From assembly GCA_020638695.1 (NCBI GenBank), contig JACKIB010000004.1:136631-200630 (forward strand): DNA of 64,000 nt, in the 5' to 3' direction. The notes beneath the pieces are model-generated. The model ran no database searches. It was not told where the DNA came from and worked only from the letters and a program-made list of their open reading frames with translations. The number at the start of each line of letters is the position of its first letter. Position 1 is the stretch's first letter. This stretch comes from Planctomycetota bacterium (GTDB lineage Bacteria; Planctomycetota; UBA1135; UBA2386). Made by a program: the position numbers and the translations under genes. Positions 3,860 through 37,278 of the stretch are shown piece by piece.

Positions 3860-5303
3860 GATTCGGCTTTTTAGCGTCCGCCCGGCGCCACGCCAATCGT
3901 CGAGTGCCCGCGCATCGGACCGACTGCAGTGCCGCAGGTGGTTTCCACCGCTGCTGCCAACCCGTAGCGTGCTGCCGTTGTCGATCCACCTGGAGATTCC
4001 CGCGTCGATTGCCGCGGAGCTTTCGCGGTTGCGCGCCGCCGGCGATCGGCCGTTGCTGGTCGGTGGCGCGGTACGCGATGCCCTGCTCGGTCTGTCGGTC
4101 CACGACTTCGACGTGGCCAGCCGGCTGCCGCCGGCCGAGTTGGCGTCGCTCTACCCGAGAGTCGATCCGCGGCTCGGCGCCGCGCAGGTGCCGCAACAGG
4201 GCTTGGAGCTGACCGTGACCAGCATGCGTCGCGACGGGGTCTACACCGACCAGCGGCGCCCCGATCGGGTCGAGTTCGTGACCACGCCGGAGGAAGACGC
4301 GGTGCGGCGCGACTTCACCATCAACGCGCTCTACTACGATCCGTTCGGTGGCGAGCTGGTGGACCCGTGCGGTGGTCACCGCGACCTGCGAGACCGCGTG
4401 CTTCGGGTGATCGGCGATCCGGAGCGTCGCCTGCACGAGGATCCGCTGCGGATGCTGCGCGCGGTGCGCTTTGCCGCCCGCTACGACCTCACGCCCGAGC
4501 CGTCGACCGCTGCGGCGCTGCGGCGCGGCGCGGATGCGTTGCACACGCTGTCCGCGGAACGCGTCCTGGCCGAACTGACCGCGAGCTTCACCGGTCGCGG
4601 TCGCGGTCGCGCGCTGCGGTTGCTGCTCGAGTTCGGCCTCGCCCCGGCGGTGCTGCCAGAGATCGTGTCGATGCCCGGGGTTGAGCAGCCCGCCGAGTTC
4701 CACCCCGAAGGCGACGTGTTCGTCCACGTCTGCCTGGTGCTCGACCACGTGCCCGAAGGCGACCCGGTGCTCTCGTGGGCGGCGGTGCTGCACGACACTG
4801 GCAAGCCGGCGACCTTCGAGCGCGCCGCGGATCGGATCCGCTTCAGCGGTCACGACACCGTGTCGGCGGAGATCGCCGACCAGGTGCTGCACCGGTTGCG
4901 TGCCCCGCGCGAGCTGCGCGAAACGGTGGTCGAAGTGGTGCGGGATCACATCCACATCGCGACGCTGTTCGACATGAAGCCGGCGCGTCGCGCCCGCTGG
5001 ATGCGTTCGCCGCGCTTTCCCGCGCACCTCGAGTTCCACAGGGCCGACTGCCTCGGTAGCCATGGCAAGCTCGACATCTACCAGCGCGCCCGCGGCGAGC
5101 TCGAATCGCTGCCGCCGGAGCCGCCCCCGCCGCTGTGCACCGGGCGGGACGTCCTGGCGCTCGGGGTGCCGGAAGGCCCGGCAGTAGGGGGGCTGTTGCG
5201 CCGCTTGCAGGCGGAACTCGATGCTGCCGGTGTCTCGGATCGAGACACCGCGCTGCGAATGCTCGGTCAGGTTGTCGAGGAATCCTTCAGGGGCTCCCGG
5301 TAG
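3858..5303 (+). CDS. cca: CCA-adding tRNA nucleotidyltransferase with HD domain
   Basis: Polymerase-beta-type head motif LLVGGAVRDALLG..DFDV, the RRDFTINALYYDP motif, and a C-terminal HD motif (HPEGDVFVHV .. VLHDTGKP). The listed ORF starts at 3645 but overlaps the minus-strand gene. ATG 3858 or GTG 3969 are the plausible starts. Confidence 0.8.
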   Translation: MIRLFSVRPAPRQSSSARASDRLQCRRWFPPLLPTRSVLPLSIHLEIPASIAAELSRLRAAGDRPLLVGGAVRDALLGLSVHDFDVASRLPPAELASLYPRVDPRLGAAQVPQQGLELTVTSMRRDGVYTDQRRPDRVEFVTTPEEDAVRRDFTINALYYDPFGGELVDPCGGHRDLRDRVLRVIGDPERRLHEDPLRMLRAVRFAARYDLTPEPSTAAALRRGADALHTLSAERVLAELTASFTGRGRGRALRLLLEFGLAPAVLPEIVSMPGVEQPAEFHPEGDVFVHVCLVLDHVPEGDPVLSWAAVLHDTGKPATFERAADRIRFSGHDTVSAEIADQVLHRLRAPRELRETVVEVVRDHIHIATLFDMKPARRARWMRSPRFPAHLEFHRADCLGSHGKLDIYQRARGELESLPPEPPPPLCTGRDVLALGVPEGPAVGGLLRRLQAELDAAGVSDRDTALRMLGQVVEESFRGSR

Positions 5304-5365: not shown

Positions 5366-6454
5366 ATGGACTCGGACTTCGAAGCGTTTCGCCGCGAACG
5401 CAACTTGCGTCGACGGCAGTCAATTACCACCGAGCGGCCACTCGGCCACAACGAGGTCTGGGAGGCACTCGAGGCCAAGGAGGCGGATGACCTCCGCGAC
5501 CAGGTGATCGACGCGGAGGTGGACGACTTCTTCTGCGGCGCGACCAAGCTGGCCGCCAACCTGGTGAAGAAGGTCGCCGACAACCGCAAGCAGGAGATCT
5601 CGCAGAAGCTGCAGAGCGAGATGCAGGAATTCCTGTCCGAGTCGTTGCGCCACGCCAACAACTTGGTGCATTCGCTCGACAATGTGCACCCGAACCAGAC
5701 CGAGGCGACGGTCGAGCCGAGCCTGCGCAACCTCGACGGCCGCGAGATCGACAGCTTCCGCGCCGAGGGAACCGCGACGCTGGGCGACAAGCACCTCGGG
5801 CAGGGCCTGTTCACCGAGCCGGCGCCCGGCCCGGCGCCGGCCGGACGAGAGGCGCCGCCGTCGTTGGGTGCCGAGCAGGACGAGGACCCGATCAACGGTC
5901 AGCGGCTGAGTCTGCGCGCCGGCGAGCTCGAGCTCGCCTTCGCGCCGTCCGGCGATCTGCCGTTCGAAGCCGACCCGTTCTCGGTCGGCCTGCCGAACAG
6001 CGCCGCGATCCAGCGCCCCGGGGCCTCGGCGGTGCCGCCGACCCTCTCCGGGATCTACCGCGCTGCGGCGATGCCCGAGGACCACTTGCCGTTGGCGGCC
6101 TTGTACGGTGGGCACGGCGCCCCCGTGGCAGAGCCGCCGGCGAGCGACTCGTCGTTCGGCATTCCGGTCAGCAACGACAACATGCGGATCCGCGAGGACG
6201 CGAACCACGCCGATGCGTCGGGCTCGTCGTTCGGGATCCCGGCGCTGCGCAGTGGCGGCCCCCCGGTCGAGGAGCCGGCGGCGGTGGAAGAAGCGCCCGC
6301 GCCCGCGCCGGTGTCGAGCCTCGATGCGTCGCCGGAGGGCAGCACCAACCAGCGGATCCGTGACGCACTGCTGTTGCTGGTGAAGCAGGGCGTGATGACC
6401 AAGGACCAGGCGCGGGCAGCGTACTTGCAGCAGATGCAGCAGCCGCGGGGGTGA
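5366..6454 (+). CDS. Hypothetical acidic/Pro-rich protein
   Basis: 362-codon ORF starting at ATG. It has a helical acidic N-terminal third, a low-complexity Pro/Ala/Gly region with a repeated SSFGIP motif, and a conserved-looking C-terminal helix. No family recognised. Confidence 0.5.
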   Translation: MDSDFEAFRRERNLRRRQSITTERPLGHNEVWEALEAKEADDLRDQVIDAEVDDFFCGATKLAANLVKKVADNRKQEISQKLQSEMQEFLSESLRHANNLVHSLDNVHPNQTEATVEPSLRNLDGREIDSFRAEGTATLGDKHLGQGLFTEPAPGPAPAGREAPPSLGAEQDEDPINGQRLSLRAGELELAFAPSGDLPFEADPFSVGLPNSAAIQRPGASAVPPTLSGIYRAAAMPEDHLPLAALYGGHGAPVAEPPASDSSFGIPVSNDNMRIREDANHADASGSSFGIPALRSGGPPVEEPAAVEEAPAPAPVSSLDASPEGSTNQRIRDALLLLVKQGVMTKDQARAAYLQQMQQPRG

Positions 6455-6613: not shown

Positions 6614-6771
6614 TGCCCCGCGTCCGGAGTTCGCAGCACAAGTGCCCGGCCATTCGATCCGCTCGCGGCGTCGCAGCTCCTCAGCTTGTCCACCAAGCCG
6701 TGTCGTCGCAGCTCCTTGCGCGCGAACCGCATGACTCGACGACTCATGCAACGAACTTCGGACACACCCCA
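6614..6771 (+). mobile_element. Short repeat element Y (full-length copy with imperfect terminal inverted repeats)
   Basis: The first ~125 bp are repeated at 35801-35925. The ends TGCCCCGCGTCCGGAGTTCG and CGAACTTCGGACACACCCCA are about 14/20 complementary. The right end abuts CTAG 6772-6775. Confidence 0.55.
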
Positions 6772-7554
6772 CTAGGTCAGCGCGATCCGCCGGGCAATCC
6801 ACCGCGCCAAAATCATCGCCGCAGCGATGCAGACGGCTTCGACGGGCCGGCCAGCGCCCAACGCGATCAAGCCGGTGAACACCATCGTGCCGAGCAGCAG
6901 CCAGGTCATCACGCCGCGGATCGTGCGCTGATCCCAAGCGGTGTGGCGGTGTCGCACCAGCAGCACCGCGGCGAGCCCGAGTCCGATCGCCGCCGGCCAG
7001 CCGACCGGCAGGACCAGCAGCGTGAGTCCGGTACTGAGCACCGCGGCCGAAACCAGGCCCAGCACCGCGCGTCGCGGTGGCCGCGGCACGTCCTCGAGGA
7101 TGCCGAGGAAGGTCACGCAGACGATGTACACCGCATAGCCGGCGGCGAGGATCAGCGCCGCCTCTTGGCGGCCGGGCTCGGTCACCGGACCCATCATCAG
7201 CGGCACCAGCAGATTCATCCCACGTAGGGTTCCCATGGTGAGGGCGCCCAGCGCAGGGCTGCGCTTGAGAAGATAGTCGTAGCCGAGTACCAGCAGGGCC
7301 ATCCCGCCGTGCCACAGCGGCACCGGGCTGAGGCCGGGCGCGGCGAGTAGGAACGCGAGCCCGAGCAGCAATGCGGTAGTCGGGGAGATGCTGCCGGACG
7401 GGATCGGCCGCTCCGGGCGCACCACCGCGTCGGTGGCTCGGTCGGCGTGGTCGTTGAGGATCATTCCCGCGGCGTACAGCAGCACGCTGGCGAGTACCGC
7501 GCGTGTGGCGGTCGCATCGAACGGGCGGGCGAGCAGGCACACGCCTGCGGTCAC
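6772..7554 (-). CDS. UbiA-family prenyltransferase (integral membrane)
   Basis: Asp-rich motif LNDHADRATD followed by PERPIPSG, plus multiple hydrophobic helices. The listed start is GTG 7554. The N-terminal helix seems to continue upstream to ~7600, where only CTG/ATC codons are available. Confidence 0.75.
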   Translation of the reverse strand: MTAGVCLLARPFDATATRAVLASVLLYAAGMILNDHADRATDAVVRPERPIPSGSISPTTALLLGLAFLLAAPGLSPVPLWHGGMALLVLGYDYLLKRSPALGALTMGTLRGMNLLVPLMMGPVTEPGRQEAALILAAGYAVYIVCVTFLGILEDVPRPPRRAVLGLVSAAVLSTGLTLLVLPVGWPAAIGLGLAAVLLVRHRHTAWDQRTIRGVMTWLLLGTMVFTGLIALGAGRPVEAVCIAAAMILARWIARRIALT

Positions 7555-28938: not shown

Positions 28939-29504
28939 TGCTCTCGGCTTGGCTCGAAGAGACCCTGGCGTACGACGGCAGCCAGCTGCGAGCCCACTGG
29001 ATCCTGCGGCACTGCGGGCTGGTCGGCGACGCGGTGGTGGCGTTCCGCGGCCCGTGTCGGGTGGCTGATCGGGAGATGGCAGACCTCGAAGACCTGCTGT
29101 CCGGAGTCGGGATCGCTGGCGATGACATGGTGCACTTCCTGTGCGAGTGCTTCGACGATGGTGACTTGCTGCGGGCCGTCTATGTGCAGCGGCTGTTCTC
29201 CGCCGCCGCGGGCGATACGCTGCGGGCCCTCGCACCCGGAGTCGACCTGCGCCGGCAGGGCGACGACTTGTTCGTCGGTCCGGGGAAGCTCTCCATCTCC
29301 ATTGCCACGCGCTCCCCGGTCTCGACCTTGATCCATTTCGCCGTGAACGTCTCGAACGAGGGGACCCCGGTCCACACCGCCGCGCTCGCGGACCTCGGGG
29401 TCGATCCCGCCGAGTTCGCGCAGCGGTTGCTGGGCGACTGGACAGCGGAGGTGGAGTCCGTCCGCCTGGCGCGTGCCAAAGTGCGCGCGAAGGACGAAGC
29501 GTAG
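28938..29504 (+). CDS. Small cytoplasmic conserved hypothetical protein (resembles DUF366 family as I remember it)
   Basis: ATG 28938 overlaps the preceding stop by 1 nt. The 188-aa product has strings MVHFLCECF and GDDLFVGPGKLSISIATRSPVSTLIHFAVNV, which I associate with DUF366. The assignment is unverified. Confidence 0.5.
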   Translation: MLSAWLEETLAYDGSQLRAHWILRHCGLVGDAVVAFRGPCRVADREMADLEDLLSGVGIAGDDMVHFLCECFDDGDLLRAVYVQRLFSAAAGDTLRALAPGVDLRRQGDDLFVGPGKLSISIATRSPVSTLIHFAVNVSNEGTPVHTAALADLGVDPAEFAQRLLGDWTAEVESVRLARAKVRAKDEA

Positions 29505-30745
29505 TGCGCCGTCATCTGCTCACCGCCGGCAAGCTGCTGTTCGTCGCGGGGCTCATGTACTGGGTGCTCAGCAACATCCAGTGGCGCGACAGCTGGGTGA
29601 AGATCGATCCGGTGGCGAAGCAAGAGACCCGCCACTTCGGCTACATCCAGGGGGCGTGGGATGGCGTCGAGGTGCGGTTTCGTTCGGAGGACGGCGGACC
29701 CCCGCAGGTGCTGCGTCCCGATGCGAACTTGCGGGTCGACCCGGGACTCCCCACTCTCTGGCTCAACCTGCGGGCGGGGTGGTTCGCCCTCGGCGCGCTG
29801 TGCTACCTGCTGACGGTCAGCTTCGCATCCTCGCGCTGGTGGTGGCTGCTCGAGGTCAATCGGTTGCCGATCGGCTACTGGGCGGCATACCGGTACACCT
29901 GGGTCGGGGTGTTCTTCAACAACGTCGTTCCTGGGCAGACCGGCGGCGACCTGGTGAAGGCGATCTACGTGATGAAGCGCTGCCACGGCGAGCGGGTGCC
30001 GGCGATGATGTCGGTCGTCATCGACCGCATCCTCGGACTGGCATCGCTGTCGCTGCTGGCCGCGATCGCGGTGCTGTTCTACCTGGACAACTCGGAGTTC
30101 GCGACCCTGGCCGCCGTGCTGTGGGCCGTGCTCGCCGGGGTGGTGCTGCTCGGCGTGGTGGCGTTCAGCCGCCGAATCCGCTCGCTGATTCGGCTGCGGG
30201 ATCTGCTCGAGAAGCTGCCGCCGAAGTTGAGTCACGTGCTCAAGCGGATCGATCACGCGGTGTACTTCTACCGCGGCCACAAGACCGGGATCTTCGTCTG
30301 GCTGCTGCTCGGCACCATCAACCACGTGCTCAGCGTGGCCAGCTACGCATTCGTCGGTGAGGCGCTCGGGGTCGGGATCCCGATGCAAGACTACTTCGTG
30401 CTGATCCCGATCATCGTCATCGTGTCCGCGGTACCCATCGCGCCGAACGGCTGGGGCGTGGGCGAGTTCATGTTCCGCCGGCTGTTCGGCGACTTCGGTG
30501 CACCCCACCTGGTCGGCGCCGACGCGCTTACCGCGACCAAGGTGATGGGCACCCGCGGCGTCGCGCTGTCGCTGCTCTACCGCATCCACCTCACGCTGTG
30601 GTCGTTGGTCGGCGGCGTGCTGTTCTTCTTCGACAAGGACAAGGTCACGCGCGCGGAGATGGAACGTCAAGCCGCTGCGGAAGAGGTCGAGGAGGCGCAG
30701 ATCGACGCCGAGATGGAAGAAGCCTCGGGCGCCGCGCCTCGCTAG
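29504..30745 (+). CDS. UPF0104 / lysyl-phosphatidylglycerol-synthase-TM-type (flippase-like) integral membrane protein
   Basis: GTG 29504 overlaps the preceding TAG by 1 nt. About 8 TM helices and the motif NNVVPGQTGGDLVKAIYV typical of the UPF0104 family, plus an acidic C-terminal tail. Confidence 0.7.
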   Translation: MRRHLLTAGKLLFVAGLMYWVLSNIQWRDSWVKIDPVAKQETRHFGYIQGAWDGVEVRFRSEDGGPPQVLRPDANLRVDPGLPTLWLNLRAGWFALGALCYLLTVSFASSRWWWLLEVNRLPIGYWAAYRYTWVGVFFNNVVPGQTGGDLVKAIYVMKRCHGERVPAMMSVVIDRILGLASLSLLAAIAVLFYLDNSEFATLAAVLWAVLAGVVLLGVVAFSRRIRSLIRLRDLLEKLPPKLSHVLKRIDHAVYFYRGHKTGIFVWLLLGTINHVLSVASYAFVGEALGVGIPMQDYFVLIPIIVIVSAVPIAPNGWGVGEFMFRRLFGDFGAPHLVGADALTATKVMGTRGVALSLLYRIHLTLWSLVGGVLFFFDKDKVTRAEMERQAAAEEVEEAQIDAEMEEASGAAPR

Positions 30746-31001
30746 CGCTAGCGTCCGGCGGGATTGGGGCTGGGCGCTGGGTTGTGCGCGCCGGGGCATC
30801 TGGGCTCGCTCAACCTCGAACTCGGCCGTGTGGTGTGCGGCGTGCCTCTCGGGGTCCGGTCGATGCGTCGGGTGCGGGGGTGATGGACACTCGGGGTGGG
30901 GCTCATGTGGGGGTGGCGTGGGGTGGTGGTGTGGTGGTGTGGTGAACTGCTTGGCTGCTGAGCTCCCTCAACCTCGAGCTCTGAAGCCGCAGGGCTCTCC
31001 A

Positions 31002-31076
31002 CGGCCCCGTCGCCGTCGGCATCGGTCCGGGCTCGCTTCGCTCGGCTAGAGCGACCGATGCCGACGGCGACGGGGC
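31002..31076. repeat. Hairpin A, copy 1 (25-bp perfect stem, 25-nt loop)
   Basis: GGCCCCGTCGCCGTCGGCATCGGTC ... GACCGATGCCGACGGCGACGGGGCC. Arms are exact reverse complements. Confidence 0.9.
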
Positions 31077-31306
31077 CGCGGGAGAGCAGGAGGGGTCTGG
31101 GGTGGAAGGCCGTGCGATCTGATTGAGCACTGACCGGATCGTGTTGCGGTGGCGAGTGGTGATGCGGGAGGTGATCGATCGACGATTCACACTCGAGTAG
31201 ATCGGCTCGATGCGGCTGGGCCCGCATTACATGTGAAAACATTGAAGCGTGACTTGACTTGTCGTGACTTTGTTCGTAGAACTATGCTCTAACAAAAGGT
31301 AGGGTG

Positions 31307-31776
31307 ATGCGGATGAAGCGATCGAAGGACGACACGGGCCTGCTGCCGTTCCCTCGCATGAACTGGGGAGGTCGGCGCAAGGGAGCGGGGCGCAAGCCGA
31401 AGGGTGACAAGGCCGCTCGTGCTTGTCGCGCGGCATGCAGGGATTGTTGGTCCGCATCGCTCGGGCCTTGAACCGGCTGTGGCGTCGCGTAGGCAAGGTC
31501 TTCGCCGACCGCTACCACGACCACATCCTCCGCACGCCCCGCGAAGTGCGCCACGCGCTGGCCTACGTGCTCAACAACGCCCGCCGCCACGGCGTGCGGT
31601 TGGCACAGGAGATCGACTGGTTCACCTCGGGATGCTGGTTCGACGGTTGGCGCGAGAAGCTGACGAGCAAGCTGCCCTCAGGCCTCACCAAACCGGTCGC
31701 ACGCGCCCGCAACTGGCTGCTGAACATCGGCTGGCGCAGGCACGGCCTGATCGATCACCACGAGGTCCCCGGCTGA
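31307..31776 (+). pseudogene. RAYT-type transposase, copy 1, with an internal 214-bp deletion removing the HUH motif
   Basis: Same start context and the same C-terminal 117 codons as copy 2. The segment equivalent to 32576-32789 is missing, with the junction at CCG 31413-31415. 214 is not divisible by 3, so the frame is lost. Confidence 0.8.
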
Positions 31777-31827
31777 AGACCGCCATCGCATTCCACCCTC
31801 CTAGGACTCCACCCACTCCCCTCGCGG

Positions 31828-31886
31828 CCCCGTCGGCATCGGCTTCGGTCGCAACTTGCCTTGGGCCGAAGCCGATGCCGACGGGG
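31828..31886. repeat. Hairpin B, copy 1 (21-bp perfect stem, 17-nt loop)
   Basis: CCCCGTCGGCATCGGCTTCGG tcgcaacttgccttggg CCGAAGCCGATGCCGACGGGG, about 50 nt after the RAYT stop. Confidence 0.9.
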
Positions 31887-32162
31887 TCGTGAGGGGAGCC
31901 CTCGCGGTTCTCGAGGCTGAGGCCGAGCGAGCCCAAGACCCCACGCGGCGGTCGTCGACCGCACCGCACCTCGAACCCCCAACGGTAGTCTAGTCTCAGC
32001 AACCGATCGGCCTCGACCGACTCGGTCGCGCGCAGCCTCGCCGCTGCGCAGCGCGACGTTGCCCAGCAACACGGATTCGGAGTTGTTGTGGTGTGGGTGT
32101 GGCGGTGCTTGGACTGCTGAGCTCCCTCAACCTCGAGCTCTGAAGCCGCGGGGCTCTCCCAC

Positions 32163-32237
32163 GGCCCCGTCGCCGTCGGCATCGGTCCGGGCTCGCTTCG
32201 CTCGGCTAGAGCGACCGATGCCGACGGCGACGGGGCC
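32163..32237. repeat. Hairpin A, copy 2
   Basis: Identical arms and loop to copy 1. Confidence 0.9.
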
Positions 32238-32387
32238 GCGGGAGAGCGGGTGGGGTCTGGGGGTGGAAGGCCGTGCGATCTGATTGAGCACTGACCGGAT
32301 CGTGTTGCGGTGGCGAGTGGTGATGCCGGAGGTGATCGATCGACGATTCACACTCGAGTAGATCGGCTCGATGCGGCTGGGCCCGCA

Positions 32388-32456
32388 TTACATGTGAAAA
32401 CATTGAAGCGTGACTTGACTTGTCGTGACTTTGTTCGTAGAACTATGCTCTAACAA
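32388..32456 (+). promoter_or_regulatory. AT-rich island upstream of the intact RAYT gene (putative promoter/operator); present in all three units
   Basis: The only clearly AT-rich ~70 bp in the window. TTGACT (32415-32420) is followed by 17 nt, then TAGAAC/TATGCT, and then AAGGGTAGGG before ATG 32467. Contains GTGACTT direct repeats. Confidence 0.3.
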
Positions 32457-32466
32457 GGGTAGGGTG

Positions 32467-33150
32467 ATGCGGATGAAGCGATCGAAGGACGACGCGGGCC
32501 TGCTGCCGTTCCCTCGCATGAACTGGGGAGGTCGGCGCAAGGGAGCGGGGCGCAAGCCGAAGGGCGACAAGGCCGGGGTATCGCATCGAAGTCGTGCGGC
32601 GTTGGCCTCGCGCTTTCCGGTGCACGTGACGACGCGGTTGGTGCGCGGGCTTCCGTCGCTGCGGAGCCAGGGCGTGTACGCGGTGCTGCTCGCGGCGTTT
32701 GCGAAGGGCTGCGAAGGCAACGGCTTTCGCCTGGTGCACTACTCCGTGCAGGGCAACCACCTGCACATGATCGTCGAGGCGAACGACCGCTCGTGCTTGT
32801 CGCGCGGCATGCAGGGGTTGTTGGTTCGCATCGCTCGGGCCTTGAACCGGCTGTGGCGTCGCGTAGGCAAGGTGTTCGCCGACCGCTACCACGACCACAT
32901 CCTCCGCACGCCTCGCGAAGTGCGCCACGCGCTGGCCTACGTGCTCAACAACGCCCGCCGCCACGGCGTGCGGTTGGCACAGGAGATCGACTGGTTCACC
33001 TCGGGATGCTGGTTCGACGGTTGGCGCGAGAAGCTGACGAGCAAGCTGCCCTCAGGCCTCACCAAACCGGTCGCACGCGCCCGCAACTGGCTGCTGAACA
33101 TCGGCTGGCGCCGACACGGCCCGATCGATCACCACGAGGTCCCCGGCTGA
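32467..33150 (+). CDS. REP-associated tyrosine transposase-like protein (IS200/IS605 Y1 HUH family), intact copy, 227 aa
   Basis: HUH motif in VQGNHLHMIVEA (CAC CTG CAC at 32758-32766). Catalytic-Tyr helix HALAYVLNNARRHG (TAC 32938-32940). A basic N-terminus, and flanked by hairpins A2 and B2. Confidence 0.8.
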   Translation: MRMKRSKDDAGLLPFPRMNWGGRRKGAGRKPKGDKAGVSHRSRAALASRFPVHVTTRLVRGLPSLRSQGVYAVLLAAFAKGCEGNGFRLVHYSVQGNHLHMIVEANDRSCLSRGMQGLLVRIARALNRLWRRVGKVFADRYHDHILRTPREVRHALAYVLNNARRHGVRLAQEIDWFTSGCWFDGWREKLTSKLPSGLTKPVARARNWLLNIGWRRHGPIDHHEVPG

Positions 33151-33202
33151 AGACCACCATCGCACTTCCACCCTCCTAGGACTCCACCCACTCCCCTCGC
33201 GG

Positions 33203-33261
33203 CCCCGTCGGCATCGGCTTCGGTCGCAACTTGCCTTGGGCCGAAGCCGATGCCGACGGGG
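33203..33261. repeat. Hairpin B, copy 2
   Basis: Identical to copy 1. Confidence 0.9.
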
Positions 33262-33537
33262 TCGTGAGGGAGCCCTCGCTGATTCTCGAGGCTGAGGCCG
33301 AGCGAGCCCAAGACCCCACGCGGCGGTCGTCGACCGCACCGCACCTCGAACCCCCAACGGTAGTCTAGTCTCAGCAACCGATCGGCCTCGACCGACTCGG
33401 TCGCGCGCAACCTCGCCGCTGCGCAGCGCGACGTTGCCCAGCAACACGGATTCGGAGTTGTTGTGGTGTGGGTGTGGCGGTGCTTGGACTGCTGAGCTCC
33501 CCTCAACCTCGAGCTCTGAAGCCGCGGGGCTCTCCAC

Positions 33538-33612
33538 GGCCCCGTCGCCGTCGGCATCGGTCCGGGCTCGCTTCGCTCGGCTAGAGCGACCGATGCCGAC
33601 GGCGACAGGGCC
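33538..33612. repeat. Hairpin A, copy 3 (one mismatch)
   Basis: Same as copies 1 and 2, except the right arm reads GACAGGGCC instead of GACGGGGCC. Confidence 0.85.
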
Positions 33613-33840
33613 GCGGAGAGCAGGAGGGGTCTGGGGGTGGAAGGCCGTGCGATCTGATTGAGCACTGACCGGATCGTGTTGCGGTGGCGAGTGGTGATGC
33701 CGGAGGTGATCGATCGACGATTCACACTCGAGTAGATCGGCTCGATGCGGCTGGGCCCGCATTACATGTGAAAACATTGAAGCGTGACTTGACTTGTCGT
33801 GACTTTGTTCGTAGAACTATGCTCTAACAAAGGTAGGGTG

Positions 33841-34524
33841 ATGCGGATGAAGCGATCGAAGGACGACACGGGCCTGCTGCCGTTCCCTCGCATGAACTGG
33901 GGAGGTCGGCGCAAGGGAGCGGGGCGCAAGCCGAAGGGTGACAAGGCCGGCGTATCGCATCGAAGTCGTGCGGCGTTGGCCTCGCGGTTTCCGGTGCACG
34001 TGACGACGCGGTTGGTGCGCGGGCTTCCGTCGCTGCGGAGCCAGGGCGTGTACGCGGTGCTGCTCGCGGCGTTTGCGAAGGGCTGCGAAGGCAACGGCTT
34101 TCGCCTGGTGCACTACTCCGTGCAGGGCAACCACCTGCACATGATCGTCGAGGCGAACGACCGCTCGTGCTTGTCGCGCGGCATGCAGGGATTGTTGGTC
34201 CGCATCGCTCGGGCCTTGAACCGGCTGTGGCGTCGCGTAGGCAAGGTCTTCGCCGACCGCTACCACGACCACATCCTCCGCACGCCTCGCTAAGTGCGCC
34301 ACGCGCTGGCCTACGTGCTCAACAACGCTCGCCGCCACGGCGTGCGGTTGGCACAGGAGATCGACTGGTTCACCTCGGGATGCTGGTTCGACGGTTGGCG
34401 CGAGAAGCTGACGAGCAAGCTGCCCTCAGGCCTCACCAAACCGGTCGCACGCGCCCGCAACTGGCTGCTGAACATCGGCTGGCGCAGGCACGGCCTGATC
34501 GATCACCACGAGGTCCCCGGCTGA
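33841..34524 (+). pseudogene. RAYT-type transposase, copy 3, with a premature stop (GAA to TAA at 34291-34293)
   Basis: Collinear with copy 2 for all 684 nt. The codon that is GAA (Glu) in copies 1 and 2 is TAA here, 14 codons upstream of the catalytic Tyr. Confidence 0.85.
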
Positions 34525-34576
34525 AGACCACCTTCGCACTTCCACCCTCCTAGGACTCCACCCACTCCCCTCGCGG

Positions 34577-34635
34577 CCCCGTCGGCATCGGCTTCGGTCG
34601 CAACTTGCCTTGGGCCGAAGCCGATGCCGACGGGG
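34577..34635. repeat. Hairpin B, copy 3
   Basis: Identical to copy 1. Confidence 0.9.
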
Positions 34636-34674
34636 TCGTGGGGAGCCCTCGCGGTTCTCGAGGCTGAGGCCGAG

Positions 34675-34730
34675 CGACCCCACGACCCCACGACCCCACG
34701 ACCCCACGACCCCACGACCCCACGACCCCG
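34675..34730. repeat. Octanucleotide microsatellite (CGACCCCA) x7
   Basis: Six perfect units plus one ending in G, located exactly where unit 3 stops matching units 1 and 2. Confidence 0.95.
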
Positions 34731-34897: not shown

Positions 34898-35800
34898 ATG
34901 AGTTCGGTGCTGGTCGTCGGCTCCACCGCATTCGATTCCATCGAAACCCCGTTCGGGTCGCGCGAGCTCTGCCTCGGCGGTTCGGCGACCTACTTCAGTC
35001 TGGCGGCGCGGCTGTTCACCTCCGTCGAGCTGGTCAGCGTGGTTGGGGACGACTTCCCGGACGAGCACCGGCAGCTGCTGCGCTCGTGCGGTGTCGACTT
35101 GCAGGGGCTGGAAACCAAGCCCGGCAAGACGTTCTCCTGGAGTGGGCGCTACTCCGCGGACATGAACAGTCGTGAGACGCTCGACGTGCAGCTCAACACC
35201 TTCGGCGATTTTCGTCCGGCGGTGCCAGCGGCCTACCGGGACTCCGCGTTCGTGTTCCTCGCCAACGGTGCGCCGAGCACCCAAGCGTCGGTGCTCGACC
35301 AGATGGGCGGCACCACGTTCTCGGTGGCGGACACGATGAACCTGTGGATCGACTGCGCGCGCGACGACCTGCTCGGGTTGCTCGAGCGGATCGATGGGCT
35401 GATCGTCAACGACGAAGAGGTCAAGATGTTGACCGGCGAGTCCAACCTGATTCGCGCCGGGCGCAAGGTCCTGGACCTCGGGCCCAAGTTGGTCATCGTC
35501 AAGAAGGGCGAGCACGGCTCGTTCCTGTTCAGCAACTACTTCCAGTACGCCCTGCCGGCCTACCCGACCGACGTGGTAGTCGATCCCACCGGAGCGGGCG
35601 ACAGCTTCGCCGGTGGGTTCATGGGGTTCGTCGCCGAGTGCGACAGTCTGAGTTTGTGGAACATGAAGCGGGCGATGGCCTACGGCACCGTGTGCGCGAG
35701 CCTCACGGTGGAGGGCTTCGGCGTGGACGCGATCGCCGCCGCCAACCGCGAGCGGCTCGAGCGGCGTTACCAAGACCTGATTCAGTTCGTCTCGCTCTAG
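34898..35800 (+). CDS. PfkB-family carbohydrate/nucleoside kinase
   Basis: ATG 34898 is preceded by GAAGAGGA. Starts MSSVLVVGSTAFDSIETP, has a GGSATYFS di-Gly region, and the C-terminal motif DPTGAGDSFAGGF typical of ribokinase/PfkB kinases. Confidence 0.8.
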   Translation: MSSVLVVGSTAFDSIETPFGSRELCLGGSATYFSLAARLFTSVELVSVVGDDFPDEHRQLLRSCGVDLQGLETKPGKTFSWSGRYSADMNSRETLDVQLNTFGDFRPAVPAAYRDSAFVFLANGAPSTQASVLDQMGGTTFSVADTMNLWIDCARDDLLGLLERIDGLIVNDEEVKMLTGESNLIRAGRKVLDLGPKLVIVKKGEHGSFLFSNYFQYALPAYPTDVVVDPTGAGDSFAGGFMGFVAECDSLSLWNMKRAMAYGTVCASLTVEGFGVDAIAAANRERLERRYQDLIQFVSL

Positions 35801-35925: not shown

Positions 35926-36066
35926 GCAGCCACATTTGCTCACGCCACTCGCCTGGCCGCGCCAGCTCTCGCGCGATCTGCTGACGTGCTCGATTGCGTG
36001 CGAGGCGCGGTGACGTAGCACGCTTGCCGCGCCGCGGTGTGGCGGTTACGTTGCTGCGTCCCCCCG

Positions 36067-37278
36067 ATGCTGGACCTCTTGCAGGAGACCTGGGACCGGA
36101 TCCAGCCCGACCTCGAGGTAGCGGTCGGCGCGGCGGCGTTCCAAGCCTGGTTGGCACGGCTGCGGCCGTTGGCCCTGGAGCGCAGCGTGTGCTACCTCGA
36201 GGCCGAGAACCGGATGATCTGTGACCGCGTCCAGCAGCTGTACACGCCGCTGCTCGAGGAGCGGTTGTCGCTCGCCATCGGAACGCGCATCGCGGTGCAC
36301 GTGACGCCCGCGCCGGAATCGCTGCTGCCGGACGTGCTCGAGGTCTCGCCGAGCACCCCGGTGGTCGATGCCAGCAACAAGACCGCGTTCCTCGTGCTGC
36401 AGAGCTTGGCGGCTGGTCGCTGCGAAGTTCCGGCGCACTTGTTCGTGTTCCACGGGCCGACCGGGGTCGGCAAGTCGTACCTGCTGCGCTGGTGGCGGGA
36501 TGCCACCCGTTCCCGCTGCCCGCTGCACGACGGCTTGTCGCTGCGCAAGGCGTTCCAGTTGAAGGTGCGGGACCACCGGGTCGAGCAGTTGCTCGACGAA
36601 CTGACCGCGGTCGAAGTGCTGGTGGTCGACGGCATCCACCGATTCGCAGGACACCGGCGGGCCCAGTCGGAGTTGGCCAAGGCGCTGCGGCTTCGCCAAG
36701 AGGCGGGTGCGCTGACGTTGGTCACCTCGCGGTTCGCGCCGCGCGACATCCGCGAGATCGATGCCGGCCTGTCGAGCCTGCTGCTGAGCGGATTCGTCAC
36801 CGAGATCCGTCCGCCGGGCCACGGAGCGCGGCTGCACTTCCTGCGTGCCCTCGAAGGAGCGCCGTCCCGCAACGGACGCGCCGCCGCGATCGAGACCATG
36901 GCCCGCGACCTGCGCGGTAGCTACTCCGACCTGCAGCAGGCGTGGACTGCCGAGCACCACAGCCTGCAGCACCACGCTCGATCGAACTACCTGCGGCTCA
37001 TCGATCCGGGGCGGGAGTTCCGGCGCCTGCGCGACTTGGTGTGCGAGCGCCTCGGCGTGAGCGACGCGGAGTTGATGGGCAAGTCACAGGTGCGGCGGGT
37101 CAGCCTGGCGCGTCAGGCGTTGGCGCTGCTCGCGGTGCGCCAGGGCCTCAGCCAGGCAGAAGTCGGGCGCCACCTCGGCGGTCGTTCCCGCGCATCCATC
37201 AGCTACGCGATCCAGGCGATCGAGAAGCGCATGGCAGAGTCGGCGCGGATCCGCGAGATGGTGGAGGGGTTGCTTTGA
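36067..37278 (+). CDS. Divergent DnaA-like AAA+ protein with C-terminal DnaA-type HTH
   Basis: Walker A GPTGVGKS, Walker B VLVVDGIH, LVTSRFAP, and C-terminal RRVSLARQALALLAVRQ..VGRHLGGRSRASISYAIQAIEKR resembling DnaA domain IV. Several canonical DnaA residues are replaced (see findings). Confidence 0.7.
   Translation: MLDLLQETWDRIQPDLEVAVGAAAFQAWLARLRPLALERSVCYLEAENRMICDRVQQLYTPLLEERLSLAIGTRIAVHVTPAPESLLPDVLEVSPSTPVVDASNKTAFLVLQSLAAGRCEVPAHLFVFHGPTGVGKSYLLRWWRDATRSRCPLHDGLSLRKAFQLKVRDHRVEQLLDELTAVEVLVVDGIHRFAGHRRAQSELAKALRLRQEAGALTLVTSRFAPRDIREIDAGLSSLLLSGFVTEIRPPGHGARLHFLRALEGAPSRNGRAAAIETMARDLRGSYSDLQQAWTAEHHSLQHHARSNYLRLIDPGREFRRLRDLVCERLGVSDAELMGKSQVRRVSLARQALALLAVRQGLSQAEVGRHLGGRSRASISYAIQAIEKRMAESARIREMVEGLL

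Follow-up and report, generated by a model that had tools for sequence, protein, structure and literature searches.

A tandem array built around a Y1/HUH nuclease gene in a planctomycete genome

In a planctomycete genome, a 1,374-bp unit is present in three head-to-tail copies at 30951–34692 of the 64-kb stretch of DNA analysed here (the window). The array lies between two housekeeping genes, in an intergenic region of 4,152 bp. What is this unit, and how did it come to be repeated?

Anatomy of the array

A 28-mer was found exactly at 31229, 32390 and 33764 (chance expectation, 0), and the three stop codons at 31774–31776, 33148–33150 and 34522–34524 were confirmed. The direct-repeat spacings (1374/1374 bp, and 1161 bp at copy 1) agreed with the ~1374-bp tandem repeat with a shorter first copy described in the initial annotation. 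Contrary to the claim made there, the units are not all complete: two of the three genes have been inactivated, and the array comprises ~2.88 units, not 3.0, because homology begins at ~30951 and stops at 34692. Its formula is E-J-E-J-E, an element E of ~1.2 kb alternating with a junction J of 163 bp. Each end of E consists of a short inverted end motif and a hairpin with a 33–35-bp stem, the hairpins at the two ends having the same orientation; E also carries an AT-rich promoter and one ORF. The features are as follows.

29504–30745, + strand: LPG_synthase_TM family gene, left boundary (Pfam PF03706, 127.8 bits)
30801–30823, + strand: relic left-end motif, ~140 bp 5′ of the array, with degenerate 8-bp repeats before it
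30906–30944, no strand: short tandem repeat (TGTGGTGG)x4.9, adjoining the left end of copy 1 (TRF)
30951–31945, + strand: E1, a pseudogene copy (three-unit alignment, ORF list, inverted repeats)
30962–30981: left-end motif of E1
30994–31087: hairpin A of E1
31226–31285: AT-rich promoter patch of E1
31307–31776: ORF remnant of E1, annotated as a 113-aa protein, MCB9869466.1
31816–31898: hairpin B of E1
31899–31945: right-end motif of E1
31946–32108, + strand: J1, 163 bp, non-coding, 1 mismatch against J2
32109–33320, + strand: E2, the sole copy with an intact gene
32121–32140: left-end motif of E2
32153–32247: hairpin A of E2
32387–32446: promoter patch of E2
32467–33150, + strand: intact ORF of E2, 227 aa
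33191–33272: hairpin B of E2
33273–33320: right-end motif of E2
33321–33483, + strand: J2, 163 bp
33484–34692, + strand: E3, a pseudogene copy
33497–33516: left-end motif of E3
33529–33621: hairpin A of E3
33761–33820: promoter patch of E3
33841–34524: ORF of E3, interrupted by TAA
34565–34645: hairpin B of E3
ending at 34692: right-end motif of E3
34675–34729, no strand: perfect short tandem repeat (CGACCCCA)x6.9 at the right end of copy 3 (TRF score 110)
34898–35800, + strand: PfkB-family sugar kinase MCB9869468.1, right boundary (Pfam PF00294; 100% identical to P0121)

Both hairpins are longer than the stems of 25 bp (A) and 21 bp (B) first reported. Hairpin A has arms of 34–35 nt and a 25-nt loop, and hairpin B has arms of 33 nt and a 17-nt loop; their single-stranded DNA folding z-scores were −7.3 and −6.5, respectively. 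Of 33 hairpin base pairs, 11 have changed on both sides with pairing retained, and a 57%-identical relative (L041) still has a recognisable hairpin. The AT-rich patch, 60 bp at 37% GC, is indeed the minimum of the window, in which the next lowest value is 50% and the overall GC content 68.5%.

The relic left-end motif matches GCTCCCTCAACCTCGAGCTC at 18 of 20 positions (30804–30823), with 0.03 matches of three or fewer mismatches expected per window. Repeat family D9 covers 30795–30823 in this region, and the local alignment z for the relic is about 3.3. In the alignment, copies 1 and 2 have one GACCCCAC unit where copy 3 has its perfect repeat. Analogous short repeats adjoin the ends of the copies at loci L001, L002 and L091, and direct reading of L094 revealed a GT-rich run ahead of its left end.

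J is CA-rich in its 5′ part, variable in the middle and GT-rich in its 3′ part. It is absent from both outer flanks of the array, and no match was found elsewhere in the window or in single-copy loci. In a relative (L092), the gene syntenic with the LPG_synthase_TM gene is separated from pfkB by 63 bp, compared with 4,152 bp in the window. Because this empty site is so short, J is unlikely to be a native spacer of the locus.

The encoded protein and the fate of the three genes

A 227-codon ORF had been attributed to every unit but is present only in copy 2. Its product, which is annotated as MCB9869467.1 with the second Met as its start (225 aa; identity to P0252), carries both motifs expected of it, HUH (NHLHMIVEA) and Tyr (ALAYVLNNARRHG), with catalytic positions H98/H100 and Tyr158. 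Both motifs are conserved across 33 relatives (alignment A1). One change at a conserved Leu, L219P, is unique to the E2 protein.

The E2 protein scored 22.6 bits with Pfam Y1_Tnp (gathering score, 23), 47.4 bits with REP_Tyr_transpos, its best NCBIfam model (cut-off, 80), and only 12.5 bits with the NCBIfam IS200 model. For its AF2 model (pLDDT 81.8), the top Foldseek match was E. coli TnpA_REP (4ER8; E 1.2e-6, TM 0.65), followed by IS200, ISDra2 and IS608 TnpA. The product is a Y1/HUH nuclease but reaches none of the curated cut-offs (RAYT, IS200, Pfam). Of the original assignment to IS200/IS605-type Y1 transposases or RAYTs, the Y1/HUH enzyme and the GC-rich palindromes hold, and TnpA_REP is the nearest solved relative, but the RAYT cut-off was missed.

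The other two genes carry distinct lesions. In copy 1, 214 bp are missing within the ORF, between 31412 and 31413, with loss of the HUH motif and a frameshift; the deletion point has a 3-bp CCG microhomology. In copy 3, a GAA>TAA change created a stop at 34291–34293, between the HUH and Tyr motifs.

The copies differ by 1–2% plus small indels, more than the "handful" of positions first counted. They are 98.3% identical to one another but only ~90% identical to the nearest outside copy (L083). As they are each other's closest relatives, they were amplified in situ. Their ORFs differ by 10 synonymous, 2 nonsynonymous and 1 nonsense changes (dN/dS about 0.07). With dS of about 0.05 and changes that are almost all synonymous, the copies are not brand new, so that the proposal of a recent amplification holds only with qualification. 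E1 and E3 are the most similar pair, and E2 diverges most. This pattern is not expected from one simple unequal crossover, so gene conversion must be invoked.

Could the assembler have joined a single-copy locus, or strain variants of it, into an artificial array? The source is a metagenome-assembled genome, and several inter-copy differences are homopolymer-length indels in non-coding DNA. However, the RE-J-LE junction is seen twice and J is missing from the flanks, which implies at least two tandem copies on real molecules. The lesions also differ between copies, substitutions amount to about 1.7% while the ORF alignment shows no indels, and the same architecture was found at two other loci in the independent assembly of a sister genome. 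An artefact is therefore hardly credible.

A dispersed family and the recurrence of arrays

The protein belongs to a large, multi-copy Planctomycetota family; the source genome has no fewer than 21 annotated ORFs of it, spread over at least 17 loci. The same element, with its end motifs and hairpins, lies in unrelated gene contexts at L001, L002, L091, L093 and L094. Family copies within a genome are old (dS 0.2–0.6), and dN/dS was 0.05–0.22 for in-situ duplicates and old paralogues.

This purifying selection suggests a host-level benefit and would suit a canonical domesticated REPtron, in which the palindromes are REPs or REPINs dispersed genome-wide and mobilised in trans, and the array is duplicated host DNA. 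Both the closest solved structure and the top-scoring NCBIfam model likewise belong to REP-associated transposases, and the long hairpins are similar in size to REPIN doublets. Several results nevertheless make this explanation very improbable and tell against the label "REPtron-like" used in the initial annotation. In a small sample, the 64-kb window and ~69 kb of sister-genome loci, with L093 and L094 read directly, the hairpin core was seen at element ends only, with no solo copies away from them. The palindrome pattern had 0 matches in a genome collection that excluded the source and sister genomes, and so carries no information on those two, and the 7 matches in a metagenome collection were all unrelated. 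Direct reading of the hairpins found no GTAG foot, new sites carry the whole element rather than the hairpin alone, and the score of 47 bits is far from 80. Finally, the family has many copies per genome, compared with 1.3–1.8 per replicon in RAYT groups (PMC5581495).

A second E-J-E-J-E array is present at an unlinked locus of the sister genome, L093. Its J is 78% identical to that of the window, and its internal junctions are the only places outside the window where J homologues were found. The conserved parts of J are its E-adjoining ends, about 60 nt on the 5′ side and about 75 nt on the 3′ side. A third locus, L094 in the sister genome, carries an E-E dimer without J, whose copies show 8% divergence in DNA but only 3 amino-acid differences 3′ of the frameshift. 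At L001 and L002, an additional promoter and a 5′ ORF fragment persist in degenerate form. Overall, 3 of the 6 close-subfamily loci read were tandem, and two more had vestiges of a second copy. In the source genome, annotation also places two further gene pairs side by side, their tandem state judged by adjacent accession numbers only; the pairs with neighbouring accession numbers are MCB9868400/401, 8433/434 and 8678/679. None of 80 more distant family loci (53–65% aa identity) was tandem, so array formation may be confined to a single young subfamily of the two sister genomes.

The 80 distant loci, and the fact that tandem duplications arising between short repeats are common in bacteria, would be in keeping with a one-off accident, that is, an ordinary RecA-mediated tandem duplication of an IS-like gene with no tie to element biology. 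This is improbable in view of the tandem and vestigial loci of the close subfamily, the homologous J at a second, unlinked locus and the two further adjacent gene pairs. Since arrays recur at other loci with a homologous junction, array formation is a property of the element.

In the wider family, orientation is biased with respect to the replication strand: the sense strand of the gene is the C-rich strand at 60 of 79 loci (p = 4e-6), whatever the orientation of the neighbouring gene. The array in the window runs against this bias, its GC skew being +0.033 and the family mean −0.018. For IS608, insertion into the template of the lagging strand and attraction to stalled forks have been reported (PMC5027513).

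The explanation that we prefer, and judge somewhat likelier than all others together, is an IS200/IS605-superfamily RAYT-like element whose copies cluster head to tail and multiply by recombination, after which surplus genes decay. Insertion would take place at replication forks, into single-stranded DNA and with an orientation set by the strand, which would leave two nearby copies head to tail. The 33–35-bp hairpins of resident copies could serve as fork-stalling hot spots that draw more copies. With two direct copies around a short spacer (E-J-E), recombination between copies would lead to E-(J-E)n or to collapse; an E-J-E-J-E array with E at both termini is the exact product of exchange between two flanking direct repeats. 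The whole composite might then be moved to a new locus through its outer ends. Surplus genes would be disabled and one gene per array kept under purifying selection: in the best reading of the three arrays, each seems reduced to one working gene. We infer that insertions are drawn to hairpin-stalled forks, that the amplifier is RecA-type unequal exchange and that the composite moves as one unit.

Alternatively, the Y1 enzyme itself might drive amplification. If it cut two adjacent copies at corresponding positions, such as both left ends, a 1,374-nt single-stranded circle (E + J) would be released, to be rejoined at the equivalent putative site of another copy. Such circles might allow both local growth of the array and seeding of E-J-E elsewhere, by analogy with the translocatable units of IS26 and the tandem BIMEs of TnpA_REP, whose strand transfer "can assemble tandem BIME copies" (PMC3333891). 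This could explain why J is confined to internal E-E junctions at two unlinked loci, with conserved ends and a variable middle, and why the array is the commonest state in the young subfamily. End-derived short tandem repeats adjoin the ends of the close copies examined, and repeated cleavage and rejoining could yield them. However, J is missing from the L094 dimer, homologous recombination accounts for the E-(J-E)n form without new chemistry, and the conserved ends of J could be conversion tracts reaching out from E. We consider enzyme-driven amplification unlikely and favour recombination between copies.

Unit-length head-to-tail repeats, an HUH protein together with stem-loops and a J that accompanies E at two loci could also suggest an integrated concatemer of a 1.37-kb rolling-circle plasmid or ssDNA satellite, with the HUH protein as Rep and a hairpin as origin. 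But the fold matches are Y1 transposases (TnpA_REP, IS200, ISDra2, IS608), not Rep proteins, and no part of J is found in single copies. The array limits are exact element ends rather than a shared point within a circle, and the family has a chromosomal orientation bias. Such an origin is extremely improbable.

Comparison with known systems

The window protein resembles E. coli TnpA_REP (4ER8) and other RAYTs of REPtrons in its Y1/HUH domain, whose single catalytic Tyr sits in the motif Y-x-x-x-N, and they are its best match in both fold and sequence. GC-rich palindromes bracket the gene, which is under purifying selection, as in REPtrons. In contrast, the window family is multi-copy and dispersed, and its protein is below the NCBIfam cut-off, with FA in place of the WQ motif, YVLNNA in place of YIxxNP, and an extra Arg/Gly-rich N-terminus and Trp-rich C-terminal region. 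Its hairpins are perfect 33–35-bp stems, with none seen solo and no GTAG foot.

TIRtrons, with several TIRYT genes per genome, include those of the planctomycete R. baltica, and no tandem arrays of them are described (Di Nocera et al. 2013, PMC3733652). Unlike TIRtrons, the window element is inverted only in its outer ~20–25 bp, and its hairpin modules are direct; in L002 both modules show one and the same loop sequence when a single strand is read. The GGGGWSAS motif of TIRtrons was not found in the window element.

Class 3 TnpA_Y1 proteins occur chiefly in Planctomycetes and Acidobacteria, with "atypical secondary structures" beside the gene (Quentin et al. 2018, PMC6006769). They share with the window protein an extended conserved N-terminal region and a W[TA]-like position, which is FA here. 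The Tyr motif of the window family is YV[LM]xN[AG], not YV[VI]xEQ, and thus lacks the Y----Q signature that defines class 3. A CTGA about 10 nt 5′ of hairpin A recalls the CnGA foot, and is a lead only.

Like IS200/IS605 elements (IS608, ISDra2, IS200), the window element has a Y1 transposase fold, many contexts, sub-terminal hairpins of the same orientation at both ends and no obvious target duplication, and its family shows a replication-related orientation bias like the one published for IS200/IS605 elements (PMC5027513). It differs in its Tyr motif without Y----Q, its low score with the IS200 model, its three times longer hairpins and its old, rather than near-identical, copies within a genome. 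The window-family bias places the sense strand on the C-rich strand, which would be opposite to the gene orientation of IS608. We found no report of IS200/IS605 tandem arrays in the literature searched.

IS26 and IS1 amplify as IS-X-IS-X-IS, direct repeats alternating with a short segment and with the element at both termini. The E-J-E-J-E array has the same form, but here a Y1 single-strand transposon takes the place of the DDE IS, and the "cargo" is a 163-bp non-coding piece that recurs at an unlinked locus. In vitro strand transfer by TnpA_REP yields tandem BIME copies (Ton-Hoang et al. 2012, PMC3333891), which is similar in the local head-to-tail multiplication of hairpin-containing units beside a Y1 gene. 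The window unit, at 1.37 kb, includes the whole gene, compared with a REP pair of 40–100 bp. Tandem arrays of whole RAYT units had been thought undescribed, and no description of them was found in the literature searched. The arrays are unusual for the Y1 enzyme family, yet made of known parts.

Anatomy of the window array and its insertion site

In a three-way alignment, the array homology ran from about 30951 to 34692. As assembled in this MAG, the array consists of three copies (E1 to E3) of an element of about 1.2 kb, E, and two copies of a 163-bp junction, J, which was found in neither outer flank. Each E has end motifs, a hairpin at the left (A) and at the right (B), an AT-rich patch and one ORF.

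Segments of the window array in the three-way alignment
30951-31945, E1, first element copy
31946-32108, J1, first junction
32109-33320, E2, second element copy
33321-33483, J2, second junction
33484-34692, E3, third element copy

The tandem repetition of a unit of about 1374 bp, proposed in the initial annotation, was borne out. A marker 28-mer had exact matches at 31229, 32390 and 33764 (expected number, 0), and the direct repeats were spaced 1374 and 1374 bp from start to start, the spacing being 1161 bp where the shorter first copy is involved. J1 and J2 differed by one mismatch in 163-170 positions.

Each unit had also been thought to carry a 227-codon ORF. Only E2 has it intact (32467-33150). 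In E1, 214 bp were deleted between 31412 and 31413; the breakpoint has a CCG microhomology, and the loss removed the HUH motif and shifted the frame. In E3, GAA was changed to TAA at 34291-34293. In the intact copy 2, an otherwise conserved Leu is replaced by Pro (L219P), a change unique to this copy.

The AT-rich patch was as first described: the 60 bp 5′ of each ORF had 37% GC, by far the lowest in this 68.5%-GC window. The stem lengths first given (25 and 21 bp) were too short, as the arms measure 34-35 nt in hairpin A and 33 nt in hairpin B, with single-stranded DNA folding z-scores of -7.3 and -6.5, respectively. The arms were composed of three to four tandem hexamers, NTCGGC / GCCGAN, in the window (32153-32247, 33191-33272) and at two loci of the sister genome GCA_020638715.1 (L002 6751-6775; L091 3612-3626). 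Hairpins A and B could be aligned without gaps as register-shifted versions of one another. An Rfam search returned only sub-threshold matches to generic long hairpins (miRNA precursors).

The window belongs to a contig of 298,562 bp in an NCBI Planctomycetes MAG (locus tags H6837_), where the copy 1 remnant, copy 2 and the downstream PfkB are annotated as MCB9869466.1, MCB9869467.1 and MCB9869468.1. The distance from the LPG-synthase gene to pfkB is 4,152 bp here versus 63 bp in L092, a relative with conserved synteny, so most of the intergenic region of the window is inserted material. The inserted region includes a relic left-end motif (30801-30823). J is unlikely to be a native spacer, because the empty site in the relative is only 63 bp. 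BLAST and Smith-Waterman comparisons of J with the window, the left and right flanks and all loci yielded no significant match (best z about 2.8, in the right flank).

After pfkB, the window has a gene for a 413-aa protein (36037-37278) with weak matches to DnaA_N, Bac_DnaA and Bac_DnaA_C (38-43 bits), where L092 has recA. Across the window the cumulative GC skew climbs monotonically and shows no origin-like switch.

The protein and the ends of the element

For the copy 2 protein, the PF01797 (Y1_Tnp) search proposed in the initial annotation gave a marginal miss (22.6 bits, E 1.3e-4; gathering threshold, 23); the HUH and Tyr motifs and the Y1 fold were found, and many homologues have a precomputed PF01797 match. 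The best NCBIfam model was NF047646 (REP_Tyr_transpos; 47.4 bits, E 1.8e-12), whose cut-off of 80 was not reached. The transpos_IS200 model gave 12.5 bits against a cut-off of 55.

The protein carries the motifs NHLH, FADRYHD and YVLNNA. Across 33 relatives, H98, H100, V159 and N162 were invariant and Y158 was nearly so (≥90%). A PDB profile search had a single match, the E. coli RAYT TnpA_REP (4ER8, E 0.011), in which EHMH and YIYINP align to the HUH and Tyr positions. With an AF2 model (pLDDT 81.8), the best Foldseek match was again 4ER8 (E 1.2e-6, TM 0.65, rmsd 2.7 Å), followed by IS200 (2F4F), ISDra2 (2XM3) and IS608 (2VJV). Together, these results mark the protein as a Y1/HUH nuclease closest to RAYTs. 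Neither the curated RAYT definition nor that of IS200 includes it.

More than 7,800 homologues of this protein were found, mostly in Planctomycetota MAGs. A run of accession numbers suggests that the source genome has no fewer than 21 annotated family ORFs, spread over at least 17 loci; several GTDB MAGs had 5-8 family loci each among the best 80 matches. The whole element was seen in six different gene contexts, and the surroundings of its copies were unrelated. In the sister MAG, for example, it occupies unrelated contexts at L001, L002, L091, L093 and L094. The window and sister-MAG copies have in common the left-end motif GCTCCCTCAACCTCGAGCTC, the hairpins and a conserved promoter motif, ACATGTGAAAACAT.

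The outer 20-25 bp or so of the element are inverted (GCTCCCTCAACCTCGAGCTC at the left versus CTCGAGG(C/T)TGAGG..GAGC at the right). In L002, the loop TCGCAACTTGCC is on the same strand in both hairpins, so that the hairpin modules are repeated directly, as they are at IS200/IS605 ends. The element ends of about 150 bp cross-match in reverse (68-74%) because each contains a palindrome. Pairing in the hairpins was maintained through two-sided changes at 11 of 33 pairs.

In L041, a relative with 57% amino acid identity, the architecture of terminal inverted repeat plus hairpin and the CCCGTCGCCGTC core were recognisable, which suggests that the protein and its ends have co-evolved over the long term. 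L041 was an exception: under the thresholds applied, long flanking hairpins were absent from the majority of distant relatives. At 5560-5700 and 6721-6830, L041 also shows the inverted end motif CC(C/T)TC(C/G)GAATCGGGTTCGAGC, the CCCGTCGCCGTC-core hairpin, a 15-mer tandem repeat and a duplicated promoter motif.

We term the AT-rich patch a putative promoter on the grounds of where it lies and of how well close copies conserve it, not of a consensus; a simple scan of the patch for sigma-70 consensus gave no match. Inside it, about 75 nt 5′ of the start codon in close copies, is a motif with ACATGT-type half-sites, (A/G)(C/T)ATGTGAAAACAT, which may be an operator or promoter element.

Occurrences of (A/G)(C/T)ATGTGAAAACAT
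31229-31243, window, first copy
32390-32404, window, second copy
33764-33778, window, third copy
also at loci L001, L002, L083, L091, L093 and L094

Hairpin A was cleanly deleted in several copies, with GAAGCC joined straight to GCGGGAGAGC; the genes there were intact. Long palindromes are unstable, and clean deletions are consistent with such instability.

Deletions of hairpin A
L001, about 5976-6015
L091, about 2590-2626
L093, 9813-9860

Short-period tandem repeats adjoin the ends of the close copies examined; they are GT-rich and variable at the left and CA-rich at the right. Their units vary by copy (TGTGGTGG, CGACCCCA, CAGCCCAA, TTGGGCTS; in L091, a 16-mer repeated 7.3 times) and are similar to the outermost bases of the end motif. 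Such repeats could have been left by recurrent cutting and rejoining of the ends, or by slippage of replication there.

Short repeats adjoining element ends
window, 30906-30944 and 34675-34729
L001, 7375-7433
L002, 5365-5410
L091, 2463-2577
L094, about 4545-4585, a GT-rich run in place of a tandem repeat

Among the distant members L003-L082, units of 6-18 bp repeated 3-7 times often lay just 5′ of the promoter region, about 90-180 bp upstream of family genes (examples are L031, L029, L037, L048, L076 and L080). Tandem-repeat density was 0.72 per kb near distant family genes versus 0.35 per kb elsewhere, a comparison confounded by the contrast between intergenic and coding DNA.

The locus had initially been called REPtron-like. 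The palindromes that flank a RAYT belong to a REP/REPIN family with many copies dispersed through the genome. In the limited sequence read here, no support for this description was found: the 64-kb window and some 69 kb of sister-genome loci had the hairpin core at element ends only, and no GTAG (GT[AG]G) was present at the 5′ foot of either hairpin when the sequences were read directly. A palindrome pattern scan gave no matches in a genome-contig collection exclusive of the source and sister genomes, and seven in a metagenome-contig collection, all of them unrelated chance palindromes. A 15-mer match to the core in L023 lies within a coding region and has no partner arm, and was therefore treated as chance. 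CGTC-tagged REPs were considered because the stems contain CGTC; they were rejected because in that family (Di Nocera) the stems are 8-9 bp and the tag is unpaired.

Recurrence and history of the arrays

The comparison with related genomes advised in the initial annotation, for which about 69 kb of the sister genome was read directly in addition to the 64 kb of the source genome in the window, revealed the array form at two further loci, L093 and L094.

Tandem arrays and vestiges read directly
Window: E-J-E-J-E; copy 1 with a 214-bp deletion, copy 2 intact, copy 3 with a stop codon
L093, sister genome, between amidase and histidine-kinase genes: E-J-E-J-E; unit 1 with nearly the whole ORF lost, unit 2 without hairpin A and the 5′ part of the ORF (127-aa remnant), unit 3 intact
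L094, a third locus: E-E without J; copies 92% identical, the first frameshifted, the second intact
L001 and L002: single copy plus vestige, a significant degenerate duplicate of promoter and 5′ ORF upstream of an intact gene

Both J copies of L093 were about 78% identical to the window J, with about 60 nt at the 5′ side and 75 nt at the 3′ side conserved and indels in the middle. An nhmmer profile found J only at the four internal junctions of these two arrays. In L001 (6362-6450) and L002 (5786-5880), the duplicate covers the promoter-proximal region and the first 85 nt or so of the ORF (alignment z about 9-12); the vestige may be what is left of a tandem dimer that collapsed.

The source genome has three pairs of family proteins with adjacent accession numbers, MCB9868400/401, 8433/434 and 8678/679. 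The last is the orthologue of L093, and the tandem state of the other two is inferred from the adjacent numbers alone. All three arrays read directly have one intact gene each; both members of MCB9868433/434, known from protein sequences only, look intact. Outside the window, MCB9868401.1 (P0255) has an internal out-of-frame stretch, with HVTTRAGARASVVAQPGARAVL in place of HVTTRLVRGLPSLRSQGVYAVL. This looks like a compensated double frameshift, and the copy is probably inactive, though annotated as full length.

No tandem copies were found at 80 loci of more distant relatives (53-65% amino acid identity). A one-off event was first suggested by the lack of tandem copies among 82 earlier loci, and was overturned by L093, L094 and the adjacent pairs.

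The window copies were 98.3% identical among themselves versus about 90% to L083, the nearest copy outside. As each other's closest relatives, they were amplified in situ. Their ORFs differed by 10 synonymous changes, 2 nonsynonymous changes and 1 nonsense change. Between copies 2 and 3, dS was 0.054 and dN/dS 0.07, and 9 of 11 codon changes were synonymous, against the roughly 25% that neutral change would give (binomial estimate, p about 1e-4). Duplicates diverging in situ almost only synonymously provide a natural control and suggest, from these sequences, selection on the protein where it sits and not only during transposition. The two outer copies have derived states in common and the middle one has diverged most, a pattern not predicted by a single simple unequal crossover. 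Gene conversion may contribute, as some copy 2 states are shared with other paralogues.

In the wider family, within-genome paralogues had 84-95% DNA identity, dS of 0.2-0.6 and dN/dS of 0.05-0.22, with homology limited to the ORF and about 100 bp upstream. At 60 of 79 family loci, the sense strand was the C-rich strand (negative GC skew) of the flanking DNA (p = 4e-6). The skew was equal for co-oriented and opposite neighbouring genes, with a replication component of -0.02 and a transcription (gene-orientation) component of 0.001. The orientation bias is a replication-strand bias, with replication direction read through GC skew as a proxy. Such a bias is a hallmark of fork-coupled single-strand transposition (PMC5027513). 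The window array is in the minority orientation (+0.033).

Possible origin of the arrays and comparison with known systems

The window array begins and ends with E, its junctions are near-identical and its copies are monophyletic; L093 has the same form. This E-(J-E)n form is the product expected of exchange between two direct copies flanking a short segment. With strand-specific insertion, adjacent copies would end up facing the same way, and forks may plausibly be obstructed by long perfect palindromes, which would draw clustered head-to-tail insertions; IS608 insertions are attracted to stalled forks (PMC5027513). If host recombination makes the arrays, they would be an ordinary consequence of clustered same-orientation insertions.

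Homologous J at two unlinked loci could arise if a composite E-J-E moved by its outer ends, or if a unit-length E+J circle re-integrated at another copy, by homologous recombination or by the Y1 enzyme. For the enzyme-driven route there is a precedent in TnpA_REP, which assembles tandem copies of BIMEs (REP cluster units) in vitro (PMC3333891). We consider it improbable that arrays are the normal propagating form of the element, made by the Y1 enzyme at equivalent end sites as unit-length E+J circles and decaying into hairpin clusters, with one gene per array kept by host-level selection. If this were so, decaying arrays such as L093, with one unit nearly ORF-less, would turn into groups of paired hairpins with linkers between them, a living intermediate form that connects an IS200-type transposon to REP/BIME clusters. 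Enzyme-made arrays would offer a directly testable model of how hairpin repeats multiply locally.

RAYTs and their relatives are usually treated as single-copy domesticated genes or as ordinary IS200-type insertion sequences. This family stands between both types: it pairs a RAYT-like enzyme with the copy number and strand bias of an IS, strong purifying selection acts on its old paralogues, and head-to-tail arrays that share a junction module have formed repeatedly in one young subfamily. Tandem RAYT gene arrays were not mentioned in the literature searched, whose coverage was incomplete, so that this is absence of evidence.

The closest descriptions are REPtrons/RAYTs, TIRtron/TIRYT (Di Nocera et al.), IS200/IS605 and Quentin's class 3, and the element departs from each in at least one defining feature. 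The family shares the motifs (HUH and a single Tyr) and fold of the Y1/HUH superfamily, with the PF01797 threshold missed. RAYTs have WQ where the family protein has FADRYHD, and YIxxNP where it has YVLNNA; besides lacking these motifs, the family misses the NF047646 cut-off and has no GTAG foot. RAYTs are vertically inherited at a fixed locus in about one copy (1.3-1.8 per replicon, 7.7% with near-identical duplicates; PMC5581495), whereas this family is multi-copy in different contexts. It resembles IS200/IS605 in its sub-terminal hairpins, which have the same orientation at either end, in reaching new sites as a whole element and in an insertion orientation biased relative to replication, which in IS200/IS605 follows the lagging-strand template. 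IS200/IS605 elements also have a specific target of four or five nucleotides 5′ of the left end; here, the left flanks are variable GT-rich repeats. However, IS200/IS605 copies are near-identical within a genome, unlike the diverged paralogues here, and the copy 2 protein fits neither the Y----Q Tyr motif nor the curated IS200 model. Class 3 TnpA_Y1 has YV..EQ in place of YVLNNA (PMC6006769). In the TIRtron/TIRYT, long terminal inverted repeats stand where REPs would be, on both sides of a RAYT-like gene; here the outer 20-25 bp or so are inverted and the ends of about 150 bp cross-match in reverse, with the hairpin loops in direct orientation. The parts and the chemistry of the array are thus already familiar; the recurrent arrays with a shared junction, the purifying selection in situ and the intermediate IS/RAYT character are not.
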